A stretch of DNA of 64,000 nt, taken from the NCBI GenBank assembly GCA_041650835.1, contig JBAZKL010000002.1:142477-206476 (forward strand), given 5' to 3'. The position numbers were made by a program, and so were the translations under genes. Position 1 is the first letter of the stretch. The number at the start of each line of letters is the position of its first letter. The notes beneath the pieces are model-generated. The model saw only the letters and a list, made by a program, of their open reading frames with translations, did no database searches and was not told where the DNA came from. Below are positions 7,048 through 57,379 of this stretch, in pieces. Source of the stretch: Candidatus Omnitrophota bacterium (GTDB lineage: Bacteria > Omnitrophota > Gorgyraeia > Gygaellales > Profunditerraquicolaceae).

Positions 7048-8472
7048 ATGCGCGCAGAAAGAGAAAGACAAGTTATGAAGGTATTCCTTGTTTATCCTCC
7101 GTGCTCTGAGCTTAATTTAAAGGGTTATCCGCTCGGATTAGGTTATCTTGCCGCAGCTATGGGTAAACATTTTGATGTCAGCGTATTTAACTATAACGGC
7201 AGAGAGTTCCAACAGAGTATCCGCTCATTCTTACAGGAGATAAAAGCGGGGAAGCCCGATATCGTCGGGATATCGTTTAATTCCTTTAACCGCTGGGGCG
7301 CGTACCGGCTGATAAACCAGATTAAGCGCCTGGACTCAAAGATCAAGGTCGTTTTAGGCGGCGTTCACCCCTCGACGATGTTCGGGCAGGTGTTCCAATA
7401 CTTTTATAAAAATATCGATTTTATTATCCAGTCTGAGGGTGAAACAACGCTGGTAAAACTCTGTCAAGCTTTAGAAAAATCGGCTGATTTCACCGGCATA
7501 AGCGGTTTGGTTTACAAGACGGCCGACGGAAAGTTCAAGGCAAACCCGGTAACGGATATTGTCAAGAATATTGACGACCTGGCGATGCCGGATTATTCGT
7601 ATGCCGCGCAAGAAATAAGGAGAAAGGGGATCGCGTTCCTGATCTCTTCCCGGGGCTGCCCGGTGAATTGTTCGTTTTGTTCTACGTCATCGTTCTGGGG
7701 CCAGAATGTCCGCATGAATTCTCCTGAACGGATCGGCGCTGAAGTTGAAAGCGCGGTCCAGCGTGGAGCAAAAAAGATATTCTTTCATGATGACACCTTT
7801 AATTTGGGTATAGAGCGCACGATCAAGATCGCGGGCGTCTTAAAGAAATTTAATATCGAATATGCTATCCAGTGCAGGGTCACTCCTGTCAACGAGGAAA
7901 TGATCGCCGCGCTGGCGGATTCCGGATGCAGGCATATCACCTGGGGGGCGGAGAGCCTTTCCGAATCGATCCTTAATAACATCCATAAGAAGATCACCCG
8001 GGAGCAGGTGAAAAAAGCTTTTGACATATGCGCCGGCTTTACCGATAAACTTACAACTTCCGCTTTCTTTTGCGTCGGTACACCGGGGGAATCTGAAAAA
8101 ACGGTCGCTGAAACTCTCTCATACTTGAATAATTTTATCCGTTCAACCCACGGGCCGGGCGCGTCCATGCTTTACATTTTACCCGGGACTAAAATACACG
8201 CTGACCTGGTGAAGGCCCGGAAATTCGATGAGCGGATATGGCTTGAGAGCGGCTCGGTATATTATTATACCGGCGAGCATTCTATGAAGGTGCTCAACCG
8301 CTGGCGTAAAGCGATCAACCGCAGCGGCATCAGGATCCCGTATACTGCCGCTTATTTCTGGGATTCACTCTCTCAGAAAAATGCTCCCGAGGGAAAACCC
8401 GGGAATAATTTGTTTGCCAAAACAGTTAAAAAATTTAAAAGAGCCGTGAATCTATTACTGCGCCGGTATTAA
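7048..8472 (+). CDS. Cobalamin (B12)-binding radical SAM enzyme (second paralog)
   Basis: B12-binding N-terminal region (MKVFLVYPP...GLGYLAAAMGKHFDV) and CxxxCxxC motif SSRGCPVNCSFCS. Confidence 0.75.
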   Translation: MRAERERQVMKVFLVYPPCSELNLKGYPLGLGYLAAAMGKHFDVSVFNYNGREFQQSIRSFLQEIKAGKPDIVGISFNSFNRWGAYRLINQIKRLDSKIKVVLGGVHPSTMFGQVFQYFYKNIDFIIQSEGETTLVKLCQALEKSADFTGISGLVYKTADGKFKANPVTDIVKNIDDLAMPDYSYAAQEIRRKGIAFLISSRGCPVNCSFCSTSSFWGQNVRMNSPERIGAEVESAVQRGAKKIFFHDDTFNLGIERTIKIAGVLKKFNIEYAIQCRVTPVNEEMIAALADSGCRHITWGAESLSESILNNIHKKITREQVKKAFDICAGFTDKLTTSAFFCVGTPGESEKTVAETLSYLNNFIRSTHGPGASMLYILPGTKIHADLVKARKFDERIWLESGSVYYYTGEHSMKVLNRWRKAINRSGIRIPYTAAYFWDSLSQKNAPEGKPGNNLFAKTVKKFKRAVNLLLRRY

Positions 8473-10477: not shown

Positions 10478-11476
10478 ATGGGGATAAAAAGAATAGTAGT
10501 ATTCCGTAATGACCGGTTTGGAGAATTTTTGTTGATAATTCCGGCGCTTGAGGCTTTAAAACGCATGTATCCCGGGGCATCACTTACGGTAGTGGCGCAT
10601 CCGTCGGTACAAGCGCTCGCCCGGATCATTCCGGGTATTAATGCGGTCATCGCCTGGGAAAACCGCAAGCATCGTTTTGTCGAAATAATTAAATTTGCTT
10701 TTGAGCTGAGAAGAGGACATTTTGACCTGGCAGTTATCTTTAACCCGATGAAGGAATCCCATCTGGTCACTTTTCTGGCAGGGATAAGCGAAAGATTAGG
10801 CTATAGAAGGAAATGGGGCGCATTATTAACTAAAAGCCTCACCGATACCAGGGATTCGGGATTGAAGCACGAAGTGGAATCTAATTGCGAATTACTGCAG
10901 TGTTTGGGTGCCGTGCCGAAAGATCACCGCCTTTCGCTTGAATTGGAGGAACGTTTGATCAATGATTTTCTCAAGGAATATCCTTTTGCCGGCTCCGGCA
11001 ACCTGGTTGTGATCCATCCCTGGACGAGCGACCCGGTTAAGCAGTGGCCGCCGGAGAATTTCAGCGCTTTGGTTGAAATGATAGGGGAAAAATTAGACGT
11101 AACAACGGTGCTTATCGGTGGGGAGCAAGAGCGGCTGAAGGATTTCACCTGGAAAACTAACTCCCGACAGAAGATCATTGACCTGACCGGCAAAACTACT
11201 CTTGTGCAATTGGCCGCGCTTTTAAAGAAATCCCGGCTGCTTGTTTCTGCTGACAGCGGCCCGGTGCACCTGGCCGCGAGCGTCGGCACTCCGGTAATAG
11301 CCCTTTTCCGTAACGATATTCCCGGCAAAAGCCCAAGGCGATGGGGGCCCTGGGGAAAGAACAATCGCGTTATCGCTCAACCGCGTATTAACGATATTAC
11401 TGTCGCGGAAGTTTTTGAGGCAGTGGAAGAAGAATTGAGATCGGATAAAGTATTCGAAGGTAATTTAAAAAATTAA
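10478..11476 (+). CDS. GT9 family ADP-heptose:LPS heptosyltransferase-like glycosyltransferase
   Basis: GT9 signature blocks: VVIHPWTSDPVKQWP..NF..L, LIGGEQE, DLTGKTTL.QLAALL..S.LLVSADSGPVHLAASVGTPVIALF. Confidence 0.75.
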   Translation: MGIKRIVVFRNDRFGEFLLIIPALEALKRMYPGASLTVVAHPSVQALARIIPGINAVIAWENRKHRFVEIIKFAFELRRGHFDLAVIFNPMKESHLVTFLAGISERLGYRRKWGALLTKSLTDTRDSGLKHEVESNCELLQCLGAVPKDHRLSLELEERLINDFLKEYPFAGSGNLVVIHPWTSDPVKQWPPENFSALVEMIGEKLDVTTVLIGGEQERLKDFTWKTNSRQKIIDLTGKTTLVQLAALLKKSRLLVSADSGPVHLAASVGTPVIALFRNDIPGKSPRRWGPWGKNNRVIAQPRINDITVAEVFEAVEEELRSDKVFEGNLKN

Positions 11477-11580
11477 AGTTTAAATAACAAAGGAAGGTTT
11501 AAGCCTAAAGATTAAATTATAAAATTCGTCCTTTAACCTTTTAATTTTCTTTGTTATTTAATCTTTATCCTTTAAACTTA
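11477..11580. repeat. Module-B intergenic palindromic element (copy 1 of 4). AT-rich imperfect inverted repeat.
   Basis: agtttaaataacaaaggaagg ... ctttgttatttaatctt...tttaaactt. The arms are reverse complements. It shares the core 'taaataacaaaggaa'...'ttaaatt(t)taaaatt'...'cctttgttattta' with copies at 13931, 56951 and 57227. Confidence 0.7.
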
Positions 11581-11584
11581 TTTT

Positions 11585-12670
11585 ATGATGGAAGCTAAAA
11601 AGATCGAAAAAATACTAGTCATCAATCCCTTCGGTATCGGGGATGTGCTTTTTACTACTCCGGTTGTCCGCGCACTCAGGGAGAATTTTCCTCAGGCGGT
11701 CATTGGATATTGGTGTAATGAACGCGTCAAAGAAGTTCTAAAGCACAACCAGAATATTAACATGATCTTTTCGCTTTCGCGCGGCGACCTGAAGCGCTTA
11801 TATAAAAAATCCAAGGTCCAGGCTGTTTTAAGGTTAATCCGGGTATTGACGGATATAAAGAGCCATTCTTTCGACGCCGTGATCGATTTTTCTTTAGATT
11901 ACCGTTACAGCTTTATGACCAGGATCTTAGGGATCAAAAAAAGGATCGGTTTTAATTATAAGAACCGGGGAAGGTTCTTAACGGATACGCTGCCTATTGA
12001 AACGTACAGCTCAAAGCATGTCGTGGATTTTTATTTGGATTTGCTGCGATTCTTGAATATTGAACCTCGAACAAAAGATTTAGACCTGAGCGTTTCCCCT
12101 GTTAATAACGTAAAGGGCAGGTATATCCTCAGCCGTCTTGGGATAAAGGAGAATGACACGGTCATCGGTATCGCCCCCGGAGCCGGGGCGAGTTGGGGTA
12201 AGGATGCGTCGTTTAAGCGCTGGCCTGCCATACGATTCACGCAATTAGCGGATAAGGTGGTCTCTGAACTCGGGGCTAAAGTCGTGATCCTGGGAGATGA
12301 GTCTGAACGGGACATCGCTGATTTTATCATGTATTCAATGAGGTATAAGGCCATTGACCTGGTAGGTAAGACAAATATCGAGGAGTTCATCGCGCTGATC
12401 AATAATGTCGATGTGCTTGTCGCTAATGACGGCGGGCCGCTCCACTGCGCGGTCGCCCTGGGCAAAAAAACAGTCGCGATATTCGGCCCGGTTGATGATG
12501 TCGTCTACGGCCCGTTCCCCAGGTCGGATAAACACATCGTTATTAAAAAAGACCTGCCGTGCAGGCCATGTTACCAAAAATTCAAACTCGGCGCCTGTGA
12601 GCGTGACAGGGCATGTATTAATATGATCTCAACTGAAGAAGTTTTTGAGGCGATAAGGAGGCTTGTGTGA
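11585..12670 (+). CDS. GT9 family heptosyltransferase-like glycosyltransferase (second paralog)
   Basis: ILVINPFGIGDVLFTTPV..., GIAPGAGASWGKD..KRWP, LVGKTN..EFIALINN.DVLVANDGGPLHCAVALGKKTVAIFGP. Confidence 0.7.
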   Translation: MMEAKKIEKILVINPFGIGDVLFTTPVVRALRENFPQAVIGYWCNERVKEVLKHNQNINMIFSLSRGDLKRLYKKSKVQAVLRLIRVLTDIKSHSFDAVIDFSLDYRYSFMTRILGIKKRIGFNYKNRGRFLTDTLPIETYSSKHVVDFYLDLLRFLNIEPRTKDLDLSVSPVNNVKGRYILSRLGIKENDTVIGIAPGAGASWGKDASFKRWPAIRFTQLADKVVSELGAKVVILGDESERDIADFIMYSMRYKAIDLVGKTNIEEFIALINNVDVLVANDGGPLHCAVALGKKTVAIFGPVDDVVYGPFPRSDKHIVIKKDLPCRPCYQKFKLGACERDRACINMISTEEVFEAIRRLV

Positions 12671-13794: not shown

Positions 13795-13930
13795 AGAAAA
13801 GTGATCGGTAAACAGGAAAGCCCGGGACGAGGTAATCCGAGGATACGGCGATCTGGGGACTGGGGCACCGGGGATCCGGCGAACTGATAGTTCGGGAAAA
13901 CGTTAAACTCGGGCTTAGGAATCATAAGTT

Positions 13931-14070
13931 AAGTTTAAAGTCTAAAGGATAAATAACAAAGGAAGATTAAAGGATTAAGGCTAAATTTTAAAATTACCTG
14001 CCTGCCGGCAGGCAGGAACCTTTAAACTTAAGTCTTCCTTTGATATTTAGACTTTAAACTTTAGACTTTT
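13931..14070. repeat. Module-B intergenic palindromic element (copy 2 of 4), with a central perfect 20-bp palindrome cctgcctgccggcaggcagg
   Basis: aagtttaaagtctaaaggataaataacaaaggaag...ctaaattttaaaatt...cttcctttgatatttagactttaaactttagac. It lies in a 334-bp gap between the DegT-type gene and a GT2 gene. Confidence 0.7.
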
Positions 14071-19456: not shown

Positions 19457-20485
19457 ATGCCTGAATTACGAAAAGATCCTGTTATCGGACGATGGGTGAT
19501 TATCGCCACTGAACGGGCACGCAAGCCCGACCAGTTTGCCGGCGCGCAAGTCGAAAACCGGGCGGAAAAACCTTGCCCTTTTTGTGAAGGTAAAGAATCG
19601 CAGACTTCCCCGGAAATTTACTCGGTCCGCCCAAAATTATCGGCTCCCAATACTCCGGGATGGGACTTGAGGGTTGTCCCCAGTGTTACGCCCTTCCTGC
19701 GCATTGAAGGCGATCTGGACCGCCGCGGCAAAGGCCTATACGATGTGATGAATGGCGTTGGCGCTCATGAGATCATCGTAGAGACCAACGCGCATATTGC
19801 CGGCATGGCTGACTTAAGCGTCGAACAGATCACTCAAGTGATCTCCTGTTATGTCGACAGGATCGTTGATCTGGAAAAAGATAAACGCTTTAAATACGCG
19901 CTGGTCTTTAAAAATTACGGATGGATCGCCGGAGGGGGGAGCGTAAAACATTCCCGTTCGCAGTTAATAGCTACGCCCGTCAATCCTAAACGCGTCAAGG
20001 AAGAACTCGTCGGCGCGCGGCATTACTATGAACTCCATGAGCGCTGCATTTTCTGCGATTTAATTAAACAGGAGCTTGATTCAAAAGAACGCCTTATTTT
20101 GGACGTTGACGGTTTTATCGCGATCACGCCGTTTGCCTCACGCTTTCCTTTCGAAGTGTGGATACTGCCTAAAAAGCATTCTTGCGATTTTGTGAATCTC
20201 GATATGCCCAGCCGCGGCAATCTGGCGCGGATCATGAAGGCGGTACTTTCAAAATTAAAAAAAGGATTAAATGACCCGGCATTTAACTACGTTTTACATA
20301 CCGCACCTTTTAAGCGGCAGAAGGGGGCGTATTGGAGAAGTATTGAGGATGATTATCACTGGCATATTGAAATTATGCCTTCATTAACTAAGGTTGCCGG
20401 CTTTGAATGGGGAACGGGTTTTTATATCTGTCCTATGCCGCCGGAAACCGCCGCAAAGTTTTTACGGGAAGTAAATGTCAGTTAG
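19457..20485 (+). CDS. GalT-family (galactose-1-phosphate uridylyltransferase / HIT-like) paralog with substituted active-site motif (H-S-R instead of H-P-H)
   Basis: Family blocks: DPVIGRWVIIATERARKP, CPFCEG (zinc CxxC), FKNYGWIAGG and the C-terminal FASRFPFEVWILPKKH. The nucleophile motif reads KHSRSQ where the family has HPHxQ. Confidence 0.7.
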   Translation: MPELRKDPVIGRWVIIATERARKPDQFAGAQVENRAEKPCPFCEGKESQTSPEIYSVRPKLSAPNTPGWDLRVVPSVTPFLRIEGDLDRRGKGLYDVMNGVGAHEIIVETNAHIAGMADLSVEQITQVISCYVDRIVDLEKDKRFKYALVFKNYGWIAGGGSVKHSRSQLIATPVNPKRVKEELVGARHYYELHERCIFCDLIKQELDSKERLILDVDGFIAITPFASRFPFEVWILPKKHSCDFVNLDMPSRGNLARIMKAVLSKLKKGLNDPAFNYVLHTAPFKRQKGAYWRSIEDDYHWHIEIMPSLTKVAGFEWGTGFYICPMPPETAAKFLREVNVS

Positions 20486-20894
20486 TATGCGTGAGCTGAC
20501 GCTAGATATTGTTAAAGTAGTTGCTCAAAATAGTGTGATAGTAACCCGCACCTCGTAAGCATGCGCAAAATTTCCTCATTTCCAAGAGGTGCGCAAAAAT
20601 TTCTTTTAAATTTTTGCGGTGCAACGTTGTGGGAAATGAGGAAATTTTATGCGCATACTCGGTGGGGTTTGCGGCAGAAAGCCGCATACCGGCGCAATAC
20701 CGCCGCAGTAAGCGGCGTACCCAGCCACACCAATTAGGCTGGGTGCTATCTGCGCCGGGTGACGCTGAATAAAGAATTAAGGTGCATGAAACAGGGAGTA
20801 ATGACCCGCACCTCGTAAACGCACGAGAAATTTCTTCGAAATTTCTTTCGTGCACTCGGTGGGGTTTCGCTGAATAAAGCTTTAAGGTGCTCAA
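20486..20894 (+). repeat. Family-C structured repeat array. It consists of about three tandem units, each with a hairpin and each ending in the boundary motif gct.aataaag.tttaaggtgc.
   Basis: Repeated 'ccgcacctcgtaa(g/a)c...' unit starts. Hairpins gcgcaaaatttcctcatttcc/ggaaatgaggaaattttatgcgc and cacgagaaatttcttc/gaaatttctttcgtg. An extra stem-loop cluster gcggcagaaagccgc, cggcgcaataccgccg, acccagcc(N11)ggctgggt. The boundary motif occurs 3 times, and the last copy supplies the AAGGTG RBS plus ATG of the downstream gene. Confidence 0.75.
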
Positions 20895-21914
20895 ATGTCA
20901 GAATTACGCAGAGATACGATAACAGGAAGATGGGTCATTGTTAATACCGACAGCCCCTCAAAACCATCCGATTATGAGCGGGAAGTCCAGGTTTTAAAAG
21001 GCGGCGTCTGCCCTTTTTGTTACGGAAACGAGTCTCAAACTCCTCCTGAGATCGTGGCTATAAGAGAGCCCAGTACTACGCCTAATTCTCCCGGCTGGCA
21101 GGTCCGTGTTGTTTCGAATAAATTCCCCGCCCTGCAAATAGAAGGTGATTTAGACCGCAGAGGATCAGGGATCTATGATATGTCTAACGGGATAGGCGCC
21201 CATGAAGTAGTTATTGAGACCCCGTATCATACCAAGGGGTTTTCCGATCTTTTAGAACTCGAAATAGAAAATGTTATTACGATGTGCATGCAGCGAACGC
21301 TCGATCTTTTAAAGGACAAGCGCTTTAAGTACATTATGATATTTAAGAATGTGGGTGCGGCCGCGGGCGCGTCAATGGAACATCCGCATACGCAGATCGT
21401 AGCGCTTCCTATGGTGCCCAAGAATGTGAAAGAAGAGATATTAGGCGCTCATAAATATTTTGAATACCGCGACCGGTGTTTGTATTGCGATATGCTGCGC
21501 CAGGAAGCACAGGATAAAGAGCGTATTGTGTCGGAAAACAAGCTTTTTATGGCGTTCTGCCCCTTTGTTTCGCGGTTTCCTTTTGAAATATGGATCGTTC
21601 CTAAAAGGCATAACAGTTTCTTTTGCCTGATGTCTTCAGACGAAAAAACGGCACTCGCGGCAATTATGAAAGATACCGTGGGAAAGCTCAAACATGTCTT
21701 CGGGGATCTAGCCTATAATTCTATTATACATTCCTCACCCTTGAATAGCGAGACCAGTATCGATAGTTATCATTGGCATATGGAATTCATGCCGAAATTG
21801 ACCCGCGTGGCGGGTTTCGAATGGGGGACAGGTTTTTATGTGGTACCGACGCCCCCTGAAGTTGCAGCGCAATATTTAAGAGAAGAAGAACCACAGCAAA
21901 CTAAAGTTGGTTAA
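20895..21914 (+). CDS. galT: Galactose-1-phosphate uridylyltransferase-family enzyme (intact His-Pro-His active site)
   Basis: DTITGRWVIVNTD...KP, CPFCYG, FKNVGAAAGASMEHPHTQIVALP (HPH nucleophile motif), FVSRFPFEIWIVPKRH. Confidence 0.75.
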   Translation: MSELRRDTITGRWVIVNTDSPSKPSDYEREVQVLKGGVCPFCYGNESQTPPEIVAIREPSTTPNSPGWQVRVVSNKFPALQIEGDLDRRGSGIYDMSNGIGAHEVVIETPYHTKGFSDLLELEIENVITMCMQRTLDLLKDKRFKYIMIFKNVGAAAGASMEHPHTQIVALPMVPKNVKEEILGAHKYFEYRDRCLYCDMLRQEAQDKERIVSENKLFMAFCPFVSRFPFEIWIVPKRHNSFFCLMSSDEKTALAAIMKDTVGKLKHVFGDLAYNSIIHSSPLNSETSIDSYHWHMEFMPKLTRVAGFEWGTGFYVVPTPPEVAAQYLREEEPQQTKVG

Positions 21915-21929
21915 ATATTACCAGCGTAA

Positions 21930-23012
<1,083 letters not shown>

Positions 23013-23040
23013 GAGGCAGTTTACGAAAGATACTATAAAA

Positions 23041-23069
23041 AAGGCGGAGGAAGATCTCCGCCTTTTTTA
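23041..23069 (+). terminator. Rho-independent terminator after gap
   Basis: aaggcggag-gaagat-ctccgcctt followed by a T-run (tttttt). Confidence 0.6.
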
Positions 23070-23099
23070 TTTATTCAACCTGGAATTACAACTAAAAGA

Positions 23100-25370
23100 A
23101 TGAATATTGTTTTAGCAGGCACGATTATACTTATAGGTTTAAGCGGGATTGTCGCCCAGATAGTTTTATTGCGCGAGTTATTGACGGCTTTTTACGGCAA
23201 TGAACTTATTATAGGCGTAATTTTCGCGAATTGGATTTTATGGGAATCTCTGGGCGTGATCTTATGCGCGCCGCTTGCCTGCCGGATGAAAAACGCCTTT
23301 AATCTATGTTGCGCTTTTTTACTGGCTTTCGCTTGCGCGTTTCCCGCTTCTGTTTTCATCACGCGCATTTTTAAAACGCTCGCCGGTATCTCCGTCGGTG
23401 AAGCGACAGGGTTTTCTGCCGTATTTCTGGCGACGCTTGCGGTTAATTCAATTACGGGTTTTCTTCACGGCGGATTATTCAGCTGCGCTTTAAAATTAAA
23501 CGCCCAATACCGCTCTCACCCGTCATTGGGCATTGCGAATGTTTACGCGTTGGAAACGGTGGGGACCCTTCTCGGAGGCATACTCTTAAGCTTCTTTTTT
23601 TTAGGACACTGGAACTCTTTTCAAACAGCTCACCTGATCGCTTTTGCTCATCTGAGCGCTGTAGTTATCATATGCGTATATTTCAACCGGGGCCGTTGCC
23701 GGCGTTATCTATTGGGCCTCACCCTGGGGTTGGGAATGCTTTTCTTGTCTGTGCCTGCCGATTTTATTCATAAACGCTCGCTCCATATCCAGTGGAAGGG
23801 CGTCGAAGTCCAGGAGTATAAGAATTCAGTTTACGGGAATATCATGGTAACCAAACGCCTCGGGCAACAAACAGTTTTTTATAATGGGATCCCCGCAATA
23901 GTAACGCCGGTCCCCGATATCGTTTCTCTTGAAGAATTCGCGCATTTCCCGCTGCTCCTGCATGAACAGCCGAAGAATATTTTGGTAATTAACGCTGCGG
24001 CGGGAGGTTTTATCCGCGAGATACTCAAACACGGTCCTGAACGGCTCGATTACCTGGAACTGGACCCGCAAGTCATTGCGATGCTAAAAAAATACCCTAC
24101 GGCTCTCACCGCGGAGGAATTATCAAACCAGCGCGTGCGTATATTCCCTGTTGACGGAAGATTTTTTATACGCACAACCACTACGAAGTATGATATTGTT
24201 TTGATCGGCGTCTCAGGGCCGGGGGATTTAAGTTCCAACCGTTTTTTTACGCTTGAATTCTTTGATCTGCTTAAGAAAACCGTAAATCCGAAAGCTATAA
24301 TCGCTTTTCGTTTACCCGGTTCACAAACATATTTCAGTAAAGAGCTCCTTGATTTGAATTCCTGCATTTATCAAGGGCTCAGAAGCGTTTTTCCCTGCGT
24401 GCGTGTTATTCCCGGTGATTTAACGCTCTATTGCGCTTCAACCGATAATACAATCCTGAGTTTGAACGCAGGGGACCTCATGCGCCGCTTTGAGGAGCGT
24501 TTTATACGCAGTCCGGTGATTTCATTGCCGTACCTAGGTTATCGCTTTAATGAAGCGTCTGAAAGAGATCTTTTGATAGCCCTGCAAAATACGGCTGCCG
24601 GAGAAAACCGGGATATGTTTCCGGTCGCCTTATATTATATGCAATCATTCTGGAATAAACAATTCTCGCCCGGACTGGTGAGGTTTTTCAGTTTATTGAG
24701 AGTATTTAATATGCGTACGGCTGCGGCGGTCATATTCTTGGGGTTAGCTTCAGCTTTATTGATCTTTCGTAAAAAACCGAAGAGCCTTCATGATTTATCC
24801 ATTCTCTATAGTATCGCTACAACAGGCTTTGCCGGAATGCTTTTAAACCTTATCCTGATCTTTACGTTTCAGGTGTATTACGGATTTATCTATCAATGGA
24901 TAGGGATATTAGTGGCAGTTTTTATGGCTGGCGCGGCAATGGGGAGTTTTGTAATGACGCGGGAGAGTGAGAGCCTTGAGAGATCACTCGGTCTTATGCG
25001 TTTTTTTGAAGGGGCTGTCCTTATGTTTTCTTTATTACTGGCATTTATTTTAAAAGAAAATTTTATGAATAGAGGGACCGCATATATGAGTTTTTTAACG
25101 CTTTTCCTGGTTTCAGGAATACTTGTCGGCGCGGAATTTCCCCTCGCCTGCCGGCTATTCCTTAAATCCTCTGAGCAGGCAAGCATGGCTGGCAGCGTGC
25201 TTTATTTTGTCGATCTGGCCGGAGGGTGGGCAGCAGGCTTACTGGGAGGTATTTTCTTTCTGCCGATTTTAGGAGTGTTTAAGAGCTGTGTGCTTTTGGC
25301 ACTCTTGAAGTTAAGCAGCCTGGTACTGCTTTTTCTATCGCGAACAAAAAATAACTATTCTACCTCGTAA
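23100..25370 (+). CDS. Fused polytopic membrane protein with a central spermidine-synthase-like (aminopropyltransferase fold) domain
   Basis: N- and C-terminal multi-TM regions. The central soluble domain has SpeE-like blocks (ILVINAAAGGFIREILKH, YLELDPQVI, DIVLIGVSGPGD) but lacks the acidic residues of the canonical GGGDGG and D-S-S-D motifs. Confidence 0.55.
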   Translation: MNIVLAGTIILIGLSGIVAQIVLLRELLTAFYGNELIIGVIFANWILWESLGVILCAPLACRMKNAFNLCCAFLLAFACAFPASVFITRIFKTLAGISVGEATGFSAVFLATLAVNSITGFLHGGLFSCALKLNAQYRSHPSLGIANVYALETVGTLLGGILLSFFFLGHWNSFQTAHLIAFAHLSAVVIICVYFNRGRCRRYLLGLTLGLGMLFLSVPADFIHKRSLHIQWKGVEVQEYKNSVYGNIMVTKRLGQQTVFYNGIPAIVTPVPDIVSLEEFAHFPLLLHEQPKNILVINAAAGGFIREILKHGPERLDYLELDPQVIAMLKKYPTALTAEELSNQRVRIFPVDGRFFIRTTTTKYDIVLIGVSGPGDLSSNRFFTLEFFDLLKKTVNPKAIIAFRLPGSQTYFSKELLDLNSCIYQGLRSVFPCVRVIPGDLTLYCASTDNTILSLNAGDLMRRFEERFIRSPVISLPYLGYRFNEASERDLLIALQNTAAGENRDMFPVALYYMQSFWNKQFSPGLVRFFSLLRVFNMRTAAAVIFLGLASALLIFRKKPKSLHDLSILYSIATTGFAGMLLNLILIFTFQVYYGFIYQWIGILVAVFMAGAAMGSFVMTRESESLERSLGLMRFFEGAVLMFSLLLAFILKENFMNRGTAYMSFLTLFLVSGILVGAEFPLACRLFLKSSEQASMAGSVLYFVDLAGGWAAGLLGGIFFLPILGVFKSCVLLALLKLSSLVLLFLSRTKNNYSTS

Positions 25371-25628
25371 GCATACGCAAAACTTCGGGATGCTTCTTTT
25401 ATGCAAAAGTGCCTGCTCACCCTCCTGCGCACTTTAAATTTACTATTAAATGCTGACGGCGTGCTTCGGAGGACTGCGCTCAATAAAGCTTTGAGGTGGA
25501 ACTACTCCGACTCATAAGAAGCGTGCCCACCCAAACAGCTAAACACTTCGGAAATTCTTCCGCTTCGCTCCATAATTTCCTCGTAGCTGTTTGAGTTTCG
25601 CTAGATAAAGCTTTAAGGTGCTCAAAAG
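25360..25628 (+). repeat. Family-C structured repeat (two units), beginning over the stop codon of the upstream gene
   Basis: ctacctcgtaagcatacgcaaaa...(hairpins)...gcgctcaataaagctttgaggtgg, then a second unit ending gctagataaagctttaaggtgctcaaaag. Shares unit-start and unit-end motifs with 20486-20894. Confidence 0.7.
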
Positions 25629-25722
25629 TCAATAAAAAGGGGAAAGAGCAGCTTTACATTCCTTAACAATTTTAGTAAAGTAATTAAACTAGAATAACGG
25701 ACAAAAAAAGGAGCGTTCAGGT

Positions 25723-26964
25723 ATGCAGCCGTATCCTGCGCTATCAGAAATCCAAGATTCTGAAAAAGATCCTTTTAAAGCATTTTTAAGCGACAGCCTG
25801 GAGAGTTGCTTAAAAACCGTTAATGCTCAATCAGGATCAATATTTTTGATCGATAAAAAGAACAAGGACAGGCTTTTTCTCGAAGTAGCCCGTAATAGAG
25901 AAGGCAAAATATTTGATAACGTAAAACTTCGCCTGGGTGAGCGTATAGTTGGTAAAGTCGCCCGGGACCGTAAGCCTCTTTTTATATCCGACCTTGACCG
26001 GGAGAAAGAATTTGAATCAATGCCCCGGTACCTGCATTACACCTCGAAATCACTCCTATCAGTTCCCCTGGAACACGCGCATGAGTTGATCGGCGTCGTT
26101 AATATTACCGATAAAATGAGCGGAGCGGCTTTTAGTCATACTGATTTTTCTAAGGTTTTAAGTATTGCGCGCGATCTAGGCGTTGCTACGGACATGCTTA
26201 AAGGATATTTGGAGCGCCTCAGGAAAGTGAATTTAAGCCTTTTGATGCAGCTTAATGATCTTAAAGGTGCCGTAGCGCGTGCAAATAAATACTGTACTCT
26301 GGGAAAGTTTTCGGGAGATATCCTGCATGCCATAAACGGCCCTCTCGACGGGATCATTCGCTACATTAACTTAGCGTACCACCAGTTAGAAAATGAGACT
26401 TCGGGAAAACGCTATTTAAAGAATGCTGCCGAAGGTTTGTCGAGGCTTACGAGAGTGGTAAATTCCATCGCAACCTTGAAACGGATGATCCCTGATGAAC
26501 CAACTACTGTTGATGTTACCCGGGAACTTAATAATTGCATCACTGCATTTAATAATGATTTTAAGCTAAGGCATATAAACTTTCAGGAATTCTTACTGCC
26601 CTGCGCATTACTGGTGCCGGATTTCGGGCTGAAACTCGTTTTTACCGGTATTATGCAGAATGCCGCCGAAGCGATGAAACAAGGGGGGATGGTAAATATT
26701 TATTCGCAAGTTCAAAGCGGATGCCTTGAGATCAGATTCACTGACTCCGGATGCGGCATCCCTGAAAGCCTGTTAAAAAAGGTCTTTGAGCCATTTTTTA
26801 CGACTAAAGCCGATGATGGCGCGTTGGGGATGGGTTTAACGGTCGCGCATGAAATAATACAAAAATATAAAGGTTCCATTTTCATTGAAAACATTCCCGC
26901 AGGAGGCACCTCTGTTACGGTATCGGTGCCCGTCGCGGCAAATTCTCTCCACGATAATGAGTAA
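25723..26964 (+). CDS. GAF-domain sensor histidine kinase (orphan; no response regulator adjacent)
   Basis: N-terminal GAF-like region. Candidate H-box near ILHAINGPLDGI. C-terminal HATPase_c blocks (N, G1 DSGCGIP, G2 GLGMGLTVAHEI). Confidence 0.6.
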   Translation: MQPYPALSEIQDSEKDPFKAFLSDSLESCLKTVNAQSGSIFLIDKKNKDRLFLEVARNREGKIFDNVKLRLGERIVGKVARDRKPLFISDLDREKEFESMPRYLHYTSKSLLSVPLEHAHELIGVVNITDKMSGAAFSHTDFSKVLSIARDLGVATDMLKGYLERLRKVNLSLLMQLNDLKGAVARANKYCTLGKFSGDILHAINGPLDGIIRYINLAYHQLENETSGKRYLKNAAEGLSRLTRVVNSIATLKRMIPDEPTTVDVTRELNNCITAFNNDFKLRHINFQEFLLPCALLVPDFGLKLVFTGIMQNAAEAMKQGGMVNIYSQVQSGCLEIRFTDSGCGIPESLLKKVFEPFFTTKADDGALGMGLTVAHEIIQKYKGSIFIENIPAGGTSVTVSVPVAANSLHDNE

Positions 26965-27109
26965 GCCCTTTAAGTAGCTCCCATGCCTGTGCACCGGCAT
27001 ATCGGATGAGCTATAGTAGTGAAATCCCATTCAAAAAAAGGGCTTACTCAGTTTCTCCCTCTAAGAAATATTATTTTTGCTCACCGTTTTCGATGCTCGG
27101 TTTTCGCCG

Positions 27110-27262
27110 GGCGGTTGCCGTTTAAGTCATCCTACCCGAATAATGATAACACCCCGCGCTAATCGCACCCAGCCTCATTGGAATGGCTGGGTATGCCGCT
27201 TTTCTGCGGCAGTATTGCGCGGGGTGTGCTGCTTTCTGCAGCACCGATTACCATTAATATAT
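27110..27262 (-). repeat. Family-C structured element in inverted orientation
   Basis: The reverse complement of 27150-27250 aligns base-by-base with 20676-20770 (tgcNgcagaaagcNgc...gcgcaatac.gccgcag.aaagcggc.tacccagcc...ggctgggtgc). Differences fall as compensatory pairs in stems (gcggc/gccgc versus gctgc/gcagc). Confidence 0.7.
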
Positions 27263-27291
27263 TTGACAACCATTCCAATTTATTATATATT
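27263..27291 (+). promoter_or_regulatory. Sigma70-like promoter candidate upstream of pgk
   Basis: TTGACA at 27263-27268, about 17-bp spacer, TATATT at 27286-27291. It lies about 90 bp upstream of the pgk ATG. Confidence 0.35.
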
Positions 27292-27382
27292 AAACAAACA
27301 TTCGGTTTTGCATGTTATTTATCCGCAATACGTATTCTTTCTGGAAATCGTTTAAGGATCAATTATAAAAAAGGAGCAACCG

Positions 27383-28564
27383 ATGAGTAAGAAAACAGTA
27401 AAAGACCTGGATTTAAAACAAAAAACAGTTTTAATGCGTGCCGATTTTAATGTTCCTCTTGACGCTGCTTTATCCATTACCGATGATACCCGTATCAGAG
27501 AGACGGTGCCGACTATAAAGTATATCCTGGAACAGGGGGCTCAAAAGATTGTATTAATGAGCCATCTGGGAAGGCCTGAAGGAAAACGCGTCGAGAAATA
27601 CAGCCTTAAACCTGTAGCCGCTCAGTTGGCTAAGCTTACCGGTGTCGCGGTAAAGATGCTCGATGATTCTACCGGTGAGGCGGTAAAGAATGAAGTTAAG
27701 GCCGCGAAAGAAAAGATCGTCCTTTTAGAAAACCTCCGTTTCCACGCGGAAGAAGAGGCTAATGATGAGGTTTTCGCGAAAAATCTCGCTTGCCTCGGTG
27801 ATGTTTTCGTCAATGATGCCTTTGGGACTGCGCATCGCGCGCATGCTTCCACTGCGGGGGTGACAAAATACCTGGAATCGGCCGCGGGATTCCTTTTGGA
27901 AAAAGAGATCATTTATTTGGGCAATGCCGTTCAAAACCCTCAAAAGCCTTTTGCCGTTATTTTAGGCGGCGCTAAAGTATCAGACAAGATCGGAGTAATT
28001 GAGAATTTACTTCCCAAATGCGATACGATCCTGATAGGCGGAGGCATGGCGTATACGTTCTTGAAAGCGCAAGGCAAATCGATCGGTAATTCAAAGCTTG
28101 AAAAAGATAAGCTCGGTTTAGCTAAGAGCCTGCTTGATAAAGCCGTCGCCATGAAAAAAGAGATCGTCTTGCCTGTTGACCATGTGGTTGTGGAAGCCGT
28201 TGACGCGAATGCAAAATCTGAAATAACCGGGGAATCTATTCCTGACGGCAAAATAGCCGTAGATATAGGGCCCAGGACTATCGAATTGTTCAAAAACAAA
28301 TTAAGGCCCGCAAAAACTATTGTTTGGAACGGGCCGTTAGGGATATTCGAAATGGACGCATTCAGTAAAGGCACGCAAGCTGTGGCTGAATTTATCGCGA
28401 CGCTTAAAACAACGAGTATAATCGGCGGCGGCGATACTGCCGCGGCTGTGGCGAAGTTCAAGCTGCAGGATACAATGACGCATATTTCGACCGGCGGGGG
28501 AGCAAGCCTGGAGTTTCTTGAAGGCAAAGTCCTTCCGGGAGTTGCCGCGTTAACCGACAAGTAA
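27383..28564 (+). CDS. pgk: Phosphoglycerate kinase
   Basis: Full-length PGK with conserved blocks (RADFNVP, MSHLGRP, GGGDTAAA, GGGASLE). Confidence 0.9.
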   Translation: MSKKTVKDLDLKQKTVLMRADFNVPLDAALSITDDTRIRETVPTIKYILEQGAQKIVLMSHLGRPEGKRVEKYSLKPVAAQLAKLTGVAVKMLDDSTGEAVKNEVKAAKEKIVLLENLRFHAEEEANDEVFAKNLACLGDVFVNDAFGTAHRAHASTAGVTKYLESAAGFLLEKEIIYLGNAVQNPQKPFAVILGGAKVSDKIGVIENLLPKCDTILIGGGMAYTFLKAQGKSIGNSKLEKDKLGLAKSLLDKAVAMKKEIVLPVDHVVVEAVDANAKSEITGESIPDGKIAVDIGPRTIELFKNKLRPAKTIVWNGPLGIFEMDAFSKGTQAVAEFIATLKTTSIIGGGDTAAAVAKFKLQDTMTHISTGGGASLEFLEGKVLPGVAALTDK

Positions 28565-56817: not shown

Positions 56818-57379
56818 AAGTCACAAGACACAGGGCGCATGACACACGTAGTCGATAGTCTATAGTCGATGGTCCATAGTTATAGGTTGTGGTTAAGGTT
56901 AAGATGTTAGTTTGGTTGTTAGGTCAAGGATTGGGTAATTGAACGTTAATGATAAAGTTTAAAGCTCAAATAACAAAGGAAATCCAAAGAATAAAGGTTA
57001 AATTTTAAAATTAAACCTTGAACCTTAAACCTTCCTTTGTTATTTATCCTTTAGACTTTAGATTTAACTTGTCATACCTAACTGCCAATAATTAAGTCAC
57101 AAGTCACAGGTCGCATGACACACGTAGTCGATAGTCTATAGTCGATGGTCCGTAGTTATAGGTTGTGGTTAAGGTTAAGATGTTAGTTTGGTTGTTAGGT
57201 CAAGGATTGGGTAATTGAACGTTAATGATAAAGTTTAAAGCTCAAATAACAAAGGAAATCCAAAGAATAAAGGTTAAATTTTAAAATTAAACCTTGAACC
57301 TTAAACCTTCCTTTGTTATTTATCCTTTAGACTTTAGATTTAACTTGTCATACCTAACTGCCAATAATTAAGTCACAAG
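56818..57379. repeat. Tandem direct duplication, 2 x 276 bp plus an 11-bp start of a third unit. Each unit carries one module-A and one module-B element.
   Basis: Units 56818-57093 and 57094-57369 are about 98% identical (e.g. aagtcacaagAcacagggcgc versus aagtcacaagTcacaggtcgc). A third unit restarts at 57370 (aagtcacaagt) and stops. Confidence 0.9.

Follow-up and report, generated by a model that had tools for sequence, protein, structure and literature searches.

Our data support the conclusion that the stems of a small intergenic hairpin repeat in Candidatus Omnitrophota are under selection for structure, with either RNA or single-stranded DNA being the molecule concerned. The original prediction for this DNA had proposed that secondary structure, of RNA or DNA, is selected, as opposed to a dead repeat that drifts neutrally, and this proposal is supported by covariation across 18 copies and by the conservation of orthologous copies. 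The hairpin repeat family is new for the phylum Omnitrophota and represents a familiar kind of repeat: these sequences probably constitute a lineage-specific family of small, modular, hairpin-forming, nonautonomous intergenic repeats, similar to REP, BIME, and REPIN sequences, in a narrow Candidatus Omnitrophota clade. Members of this phylum have no cultured representatives and, to our knowledge, little is on record about their non-coding DNA; our literature searches found no description of repeats in this phylum. Hereafter, "the window" denotes the whole 64-kb stretch of DNA analyzed.

Two inverted copies share a four-helix fold and differ by matched changes

Two regions of the window had been predicted to be homologous in inverted orientation, and both pairwise alignment and a covariance model confirmed this relationship. 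More specifically, copy A (20671-20762, plus strand) and copy B (27147-27245, minus strand) are homologous elements of ~95 nucleotides (nt), inverted relative to each other. The reverse complement of 27147-27245 matched 20668-20764 along its entire length, and the covariance model scored copy A at 115 bits (E ~1e-26; match at 20668-20764) and copy B at 104.7 bits (E ~1e-24). The next match in the 64-kb window reached only 14 bits, which is sub-significant, in a search with filters off and E values up to 10. Copy B had been described as the third copy of its family, a count that does not hold, because only two sequences in the window match the model even with filters off. The neighboring repeats at 20539-20900 and 25360-25631 represent a different, leader repeat, in which copy A is embedded.

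Both copies adopt the same fold, consisting of a P1 hairpin and a long-range stem, P2, that encloses hairpins P3 and P4. Copy A is a full nested form of 92 nt, as defined by the covariance model match and the fold. Its P1 (Hp1 of the outer unit; GCGGC-AGAAA-GCCGC) was assigned by folding to 20671-20685, and its P2 (Hp2 of the outer unit) spans 20689-20758, where CCGGCGCA (20689-20696) pairs with TGCGCCGG (20751-20758). The enclosed P3 (CGCCGC-AGTAA-GCGGCG; 20701-20717) and P4 (CCCAGCC-ACACCAATTA-GGCTGGG; 20720-20743) form an inner module (20701-20746), delimited by alignment of orthologous spacers and by short-form covariance model matches in loci L043 and L045; all of these features lie on the plus strand. 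Copy B, likewise a full nested form by model match and fold, carries on the minus strand P1 (GCTGC-AGAAA-GCAGC) at 27228-27242 and P2 at 27150-27226, the latter pairing CACCCCGCGC (27217-27226) with GCGCGGGGTG (27150-27159) and enclosing P3 (TGCCGC-AGAAAA-GCGGCA; 27194-27211) and P4 (CCCAGCC-ATTCCAATGA-GGCTGGG; 27168-27191). Folding with RNA parameters gave z scores of -4.7 and -6.6 for the two copies, whereas DNA parameters returned the same four helices with z scores of -7.1 and -7.0. The complementary strands of copies A and B folded nearly as well.

Over 92 aligned positions, the two copies differ by 14 substitutions and 2 single-base indels. Paired columns hold 8 of the 14 substitutions, and 6 of these make up three fully compensated pairs, one each in P1 (G:C in copy A to U:A in copy B), P2 (G:C to C:G), and P3 (C:G to U:A). 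One of the two other stem substitutions improves a U.G pair to C:G, and the second affects an end position of P2 at which most copies have no pair; between A and B, every conserved pair stays intact. By a rough hand estimate, ~0.16 compensated pairs would be expected from random placement, and the probability of three is ~6e-4. Thus, the matched P1 change noted in the original prediction is confirmed by the A/B alignment and the shared fold, and the compensations in P2 and P3, which it had overlooked, can be added. Its statement that P4 keeps its stem while the loop differs was also correct, except that the loop comprises 10 nt (ACACCAATTA versus ATTCCAATGA) and not 11 nt.

Covariation across 18 copies reflects compensation in the stems

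In the alignment of 18 copies, standard pairs occupied 94.4% of pair cells compared to 86.1% in shuffled alignments, double-sided changes occurred in 13 of 30 pairs (4.5 ± 1.1 in shuffles), and the covariation score was 0.207 (0.078 in shuffles); for each of these three measures, none of 500 shuffles was as high. When the 3' partners were moved by 1 to 3 columns as a control, at most 6 double-sided pairs and a score of at most 0.046 were obtained. Divergence was 0.150 in paired and 0.156 in unpaired columns. Since these values are about equal, the stem signal reflects compensation and not a slower rate of change. Two outcomes had been named as speaking against selection, namely, equally frequent change in unpaired positions and covariation that vanishes as copies are added. 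The first was indeed found, whereas the covariation persisted above both the shuffles and the slid-partner controls.

Among the stems, P1 varies most: 5 of its 6 pairs show double-sided changes, and its stem divergence of 0.44 is near that of the flanks (0.69), whereas its AGAAA loop is conserved (0.17). The third P2 pair appears across copies as G:C, C:G, A:U, or U.G, and uncompensated stem changes are nearly absent among well-aligned copies. The invariance of P4 in the first copy set was partly imposed by the search pattern. In the L048 copy, which was found without the P4 pattern, the P4 stem CCCAGCC/GGCUGGG is replaced by CCGGCGC/GCGCCGG, P1, P2, and P3 are also changed in a compensatory manner, and the loops are kept. 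Copy-to-copy exchange or quasi-palindrome correction could be the source of some of the matched changes.

The family appears confined to a narrow clade

Scanning 185,579 species genomes with a P4-hairpin pattern identified 32 loci, 9 of them with the whole element, and these 9 come from just two MAGs, GCA_964588175 and Ca. Omnitrophota SO_2017_GW1_19. A metagenome scan returned mostly the same organisms again and added few independent copies, and a viral-contig scan with the P4 pattern yielded no matches. Orthologous loci fetched via homologs of PGK, ABC-F, and GlyRS added short forms, empty sites, and the divergent full copy L048, which is located on another contig of the window organism. The 18 distinct copies thus collected derive from four closely related Candidatus Omnitrophota assemblies and represent a partial census biased toward one subfamily, as the collection patterns fix part of P4 or P3. 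Four copies were found in ~86 kb of the window organism, and a locus identical to the window is present in ENA assembly ERZ27247363. Overall, the hairpin repeat family appears to be confined to a narrow clade. Copies inside one genome are 85-93% alike and not near-identical, hence showing no sign of very recent bursts.

The nearest proteins to the window PGK carry the name Candidatus Omnitrophota. GCA_964588175 was taken as Omnitrophota because it is syntenic with the window and its PGK is 93% identical; the GlyRS of SO_2017_GW1_19 is 95% identical to that of GCA_964588175. The public record GCA_964588175.1 (source of L002, L003, L014, L016, L020, L027, and L043) is labeled "uncultured Planctomycetales." Its PGK, ABC-F, and GlyRS share 93-96% identity with Omnitrophota MAG proteins, so that this assembly looks like a close Omnitrophota relative and the Planctomycetales label looks wrong.

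Rfam 15 models gave no match at the gathering score in the window, L037, or L048, and nothing on the element at E values up to 10 in the stretch 20400-27500, which contains both copies. ARAGORN detected no tRNA or tmRNA.

The element is built from a two-hairpin unit that nests within itself

The building block of the family is a ~50-nt unit of two hairpins. Hp1 consists of a 5-6 bp stem of free sequence with a purine pentaloop (AGAAA), followed by the linker RYA; the stem of Hp2, bordered by ACC...GGGUG, measures 7-10 bp, and its loop includes UUCCRAU. In the 93% and 86% relatives, the exact position of copy A within the galT1-galT2 spacer is occupied by a 52-nt short form composed of P1 and a P2 hairpin closed by the loop AAUUCCGAU, so that the inner module of copy A is missing from the orthologous copies of these two relatives. 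The P3-P4 module of the window (45 nt) consists of GCCGC-AGAAA-GCGGC, a linker, and ACC-stem-AUUCCAAU-stem-GGGUG. Since this is the architecture of the short form, we interpret the 95-nt form as a short unit located inside the Hp2 loop of another unit. We compared 13 full-length CCCAGCC-type copies, a sample that was ascertained via the inner module and from which the divergent L048 copy was set aside. Divergence was 6.6% for inner modules and 29% for outer parts, and these values were not correlated (Mantel r = -0.08). As these divergences are unequal and uncorrelated, they fit an inner unit that was repeatedly acquired or lost.

Further arrangements include full and short units in direct tandem (L039), solitary or inverted Hp2 hairpins beside full copies (L014, L016), a multiply nested cluster in both orientations (L045), and a GC-rich palindrome inserted into the P1 loop (L002b). 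Inverted partial units adjoin full copies in L014, L016, and L045; both window copies are solitary. Three structural candidates were tried and rejected. Kissing of the two hairpin loops (Hp1, GGAAA/AGAAA; Hp2, UUUCC/UUCC) is perfect in the L048 short form only and is not general; the likeness of the Hp2 loop UUCCAAU to a tRNA T-loop is broken by an extra C and by a pyrimidine where tRNAs have a purine; and a hammerhead or other small ribozyme was dismissed for lack of conserved core motifs and Rfam matches.

Copies are intergenic, occur in both orientations, and vary between close relatives

All 18 copies are intergenic, and none of the open reading frames (ORFs) overlapping them has been called as a gene. 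ORFs of 70-130 codons cross the repeat-filled spacers of the window (20502-20894, minus strand; 27077-27355 and 27178-27390, plus strand); they are uncalled in public assemblies and almost certainly spurious. For 14 copies, orientation relative to the neighboring genes was read by eye from flanking ORFs and called genes, giving ~8 sense and ~6 antisense copies. Copy A lies in the same direction as its genes, within a promoterless spacer of the galT1-galT2 operon. Copy B is antisense to both of its flanking genes; it is situated 183 nt after the stop of a histidine kinase gene (26964) and before the pgk promoter (TTGACA-17-TATATT; 27263-27291, plus strand; conserved in four genomes). As this promoter starts 18 nt after copy B, the element is outside the pgk transcript, and no minus-strand promoter placed to transcribe copy B was found. 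Genes next to copies (galT-like, pgk, csp, ABC-F, glyS, and others) have no common function. Given the mixed orientation, this incoherent gene set, and the position of copy B beyond the pgk promoter, the element does not behave as a cis-regulatory leader or riboswitch. Nor does it resemble an intrinsic terminator: no T-run follows P2 in either copy, and the only terminator-like prediction inside copy B is a 5-bp match at chance level.

Presence of the element varies between close relatives at every comparable site, gain and precise loss being indistinguishable at each individual site. Copy B is absent at the orthologous site in L042 (95% PGK identity), L043 (93%), and L045 (86%), and L042 has different hairpin DNA there. 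Extra repeat-like DNA adjoining copy B (27084-27146, no strand assigned) is also missing in L043, the 93% relative, marking a variable patch upstream of the pgk promoter. An unoccupied version of the copy A site (GGGGTTT^CGCTGAA; 20867-20868, plus strand) occurs within the window in a second, paralogous leader unit (20799-20900). The csp 5' untranslated region (UTR) is empty in two genomes, holds a short form in the window organism, and holds a full form in GCA_964588175. The content of the panB-glyS spacer varies likewise: in GCA_964588175, a full copy in antisense orientation directly adjoins the glyS promoter, the window organism has a truncated fragment in sense orientation, and SO_2017 has other palindromes. 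Downstream of ABC-F, the repeat family differs from genome to genome. Behind the gap terminator, L045 has a nested cluster and the window has nothing. The speE-histidine kinase spacer of the window versus L043 was considered as a clean filled/empty pair and discarded, the window spacer being too rearranged.

Three filled/empty comparisons (leader GGGGTTT^CGCT, csp UTR, and Hp2 loop AATTC^CGATC) revealed clean junctions and no target-site duplication (TSD) of at least 3 nt. Terminal inverted repeats (TIRs) are absent, as the 5' end TTTGCGGCAGAAAGC is unrelated to the reverse complement of the 3' end (CGTCACCCGGCGCA). GTAG is absent on either strand of copies A and B, and no conserved tetranucleotide 5' of the element was found in the 18-copy alignment; the 5' flanks are T-rich and variable (TTT, TTC, ATC, AAT, ACC). 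Insertion points have a common context, being located immediately behind a hairpin with a T-run (GGGGTTT^, CGGTTTTTT^, CCCTTTTTATTTT^), directly 5' of a -35 box, or within the loop of a hairpin. Domains of transposases, integrases, or reverse transcriptases were found neither in the window genes nor in the annotated genes of related loci (~190 kb). Similarly, no Y1_Tnp domain was present among the annotated genes of the window and related loci, which cover a fraction of each genome.

Orthologous copies are conserved above neutral sites, which bears on alternative explanations

Four-fold degenerate sites of five flanking genes served as the neutral reference; their identity to the window is 61-72% in L043 and 44-57% in L045. 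At short-form positions, the orthologs of copy A are identical at 53/54 and 51/54 positions (binomial P of 1e-7 and 8e-10), and the orthologous csp UTR copies at 41/47 positions (P of 0.011 against 0.72). Overall, orthologous copies are 87-98% identical, compared to 44-72% for four-fold sites. Individual copies are therefore kept well above the neutral expectation, and their stems change only in matched fashion.

The copies conserved across species are sense copies in transcribed regions (galT spacer, csp 5' UTR), and both antisense copies that could be checked (copy B and L020) are lineage-specific. This pattern is in favor of a functional structured RNA, either an mRNA module or a small RNA, that is selected as RNA and has been dispersed by duplication of a useful module rather than by selfish mobility. 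Consistently, sequence is preserved in loops and junctions, in contrast to the covarying stems, as seen for the P1 loop and stem (0.17 versus 0.44), and on the defined strand ~9 G.U wobbles contrast with 1 reliable A.C mismatch, although this asymmetry is thin, with most wobbles at one terminal P2 position. Nevertheless, we consider this explanation unlikely for the family as a whole. Approximately 6 of 14 copies run against the direction of their neighboring genes, copy B has no minus-strand promoter from which it might be transcribed in sense, and the flanks are unconserved, which means that neither promoter nor terminator travels with the element. Moreover, the leader works without the element, as the proximal unit before galT2 has none; units nest within each other in either orientation; neighboring genes are functionally unrelated; and no Rfam match was obtained at E values up to 10. 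An RNA-level role is plausible for copies inside transcripts and would account for their conservation, yet the existence of antisense and untranscribed copies means that it is not the defining property of the family.

The csp copies also bear on a second alternative, in which the element is a neutral palindromic repeat and its matched changes are mechanical, arising by quasi-palindrome template switching in replication or by exchange between copies. These orthologous copies differ at 6 of 47 positions and by a 45-nt indel, whereas their flanks differ at 4 of 334 positions (Fisher p = 4e-4). With 330 of 334 flanking positions identical, the element is the fastest-changing piece of a very constrained UTR, which leaves room for inter-copy exchange as a contributing mechanism. 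In addition, P2 and P3 variants are shared by copies of different genomes in mosaic combinations, and tandem and truncated units show frequent recombination. Still, the csp differences include two pairs in which compensation is complete (P1 C:G/U:A, P2 C:G/G:C) and leave no pair broken, and uncompensated stem changes are almost lacking among well-aligned copies in general. The excess identity of orthologs over four-fold sites would require purifying selection or constant homogenization, the loops are conserved too although they have no internal template, and a distance of 3-4 nt separates the outermost P1 pairs from the edge of the element, in our judgment too little homology for their replacement by gene conversion. 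We thus regard neutrality as quite improbable.

Finally, the end or relic of a larger mobile element that has lost its protein gene, such as IS200/IS605-type subterminal hairpins or a guide-RNA scaffold, would agree with the hairpin-rich ends, the T-rich 5' flanks, and clean junctions devoid of TIRs and TSDs, but is very improbable given that 0 of 18 copies adjoin a transposase or TnpB-like ORF, that the left end has no conserved flanking tetranucleotide, that the unit is only ~50 nt and self-complete in many places, and that Rfam models give no match.

Other repeats and features occur in the same spacers

The leader repeat that surrounds copy A occurs at 20539-20795 and 20799-20900, with degenerate copies at 25360-25631. 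It is organized as ACCCGCACCTCGTAA, a covarying hairpin, ACTCGGTGGGGTTT, the optional hairpin repeat, and CGCTRRATAAAGnTTTAAGGTGC, and its conservation across species amounts to 90-96%, compared to 44-72% identity at their four-fold sites. Its GCACCT segment has two alternative pairing partners, GGTGGGG or the galT2 Shine-Dalgarno region AAGGTGC (ATG at 20895), which suggests that the leader repeat might serve as a translational switch.

A second repeat family comprises AT-rich imperfect palindromes of ~125 nt with a GC-rich center (CCTGCCTGCCGGCAGGCAGG). In the window, these palindromes are located at 11450-11596, 13915-14069, 56945-57081, and 57221-57357, the last two within a 276-nt tandem duplication (56818-57369). 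In GCA_964588175, the family also precedes the csp promoter and the ABC-F gene, and in the window organism it occurs downstream of ABC-F. The small GC palindrome is present on its own in the P1 loop of a hairpin repeat (L002, 3007-3123). A third family of small palindromes, AAGACCNGGTCTT, is often paired and shares its spacer hot spots with the hairpin repeat (L006, L020, L049, and L052 spacers).

Directly after the histidine kinase stop, a long hairpin at 26955-27052 (GAGTAAGCCCTTT ... AAAGGGCTTACTC) encloses ~70 nt and is kept in L042 and L043. Downstream of ABC-F, a candidate small RNA gene is conserved in three genomes (L037 ~7900-8030, minus strand; L048 ~12300-12460; L049 ~12000-12160), with a promoter (TTGTCA...TATACT), a near-invariant predicted transcript of ~110 nt, an intrinsic terminator (CCGGGTCAGGGGGGAGATCCGGTTTTTT), and no Rfam match. 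Nearly all genes of the window (1-64000) are on the plus strand and GC skew is positive throughout; this uniform strand bias and skew place the window on one replichore, with genes co-oriented with replication. The window contains no tRNA, rRNA, or mobile-element genes.

DISCUSSION

REP-like behavior of the hairpin repeat family is evident from its intergenic location, occurrence in both orientations, turnover, modular and nested forms, clean junctions, and compensated hairpins. Between close relatives, units are added, lost, nested, and tandemly duplicated, and such events favor sites next to a hairpin plus T-run, sites just upstream of promoters, or the loops of other units. We infer that the hairpins may be recognized as single-stranded DNA by a trans-acting enzyme, perhaps of the Y1 (IS200/RAYT) type, that moves or excises the units, and that the host may retain copies in transcribed spacers (those of galT and the csp 5' UTR, for example) as mRNA structural modules. 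The REP-like interpretation is weakened by the lack of a transposase in the window or in ~190 kb of related annotated DNA, which makes the mobilizing agent hypothetical, and by the strong conservation of orthologs, which is atypical of purely selfish repeats.

A bolder possibility, to which we give only limited credence, is that the ~50-nt unit is a new minimal mobile DNA that inserts without duplication into single-stranded hairpin loops, including the loops of its relatives, and beside terminator-like hairpins. Such a unit would be moved by an as yet unrecognized Omnitrophota enzyme, and some of its copies would have been co-opted by the host as mRNA modules.

The REP-like interpretation implies that structured repeats under measurable hairpin selection also populate small Omnitrophota genomes, where they make promoter- and terminator-adjacent spacers the most changeable parts of otherwise syntenic chromosomes. 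The two features of note are self-nesting in hairpin loops and conservation of orthologs above neutral sites. Self-nesting together with clean junctions offers a tractable case for how very small nonautonomous elements move, and the covariance model provides a clade marker that flags sites prone to assembly and gene-call errors.

Several known systems share some of these properties. Like MITEs (e.g., the Correia elements of Neisseria), the Omnitrophota elements are small dispersed nonautonomous repeats near promoters and terminators. However, MITEs are defined by TIRs and TSDs; both were looked for in the Omnitrophota element and neither is present, so it is not a MITE. Pneumococcal BOX and enterobacterial ERIC/IRU elements are modular or length-variant structured intergenic repeats, often located inside transcribed spacers, and their short and long forms arise by internal insertions and deletions. 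The Omnitrophota family resembles them as modular, length-variant intergenic repeats, with no sequence relationship; BOX modules are arranged linearly (A-B-C) and ERIC is a single long imperfect palindrome, whereas Omnitrophota units are nested in loops. The ends of IS200/IS605 elements and their nonautonomous derivatives (palindrome-associated transposable elements) have subterminal hairpins, no TIR, no TSD, and clean filled/empty junctions, as does our family; such junctions are consistent with single-strand "peel and paste." IS200/IS605-type elements insert 3' of a fixed tetra- or pentanucleotide. In contrast to these, the Omnitrophota element is much smaller, has no constant 5' target tetranucleotide, and has no associated tnpA or tnpB.

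Genomes with REPs have a cognate RAYT (Y1 transposase) gene that REPs typically flank. The REP palindrome is immediately preceded by a conserved tetranucleotide, in most cases GTAG (PMC8266576). With GTAG absent and no RAYT gene known from the annotated loci, the hairpin repeat is not a strict REP. Furthermore, its unit consists of two different hairpins with conserved loops, whereas REPs are one palindrome or an inverted doublet, and Omnitrophota units, unlike REPs and REPINs, nest in each other's loops. Each Omnitrophota module is nonetheless a hairpin of 15-30 nt, in keeping with the REP palindrome (20-50 nt, extragenic, high copy). As in REP, BIME, and REPIN families, we find short extragenic palindromes in many copies and in either orientation, variably present between relatives, and able to fold as single-stranded DNA or mRNA. 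BIMEs are clusters of units in alternating orientation; in the Omnitrophota family, inverted partial units adjoin full copies at some loci, and the window copies are solitary. Compensatory changes across the hairpin, which here affect all four helices, have been described as common in REPINs (PMC3116915).
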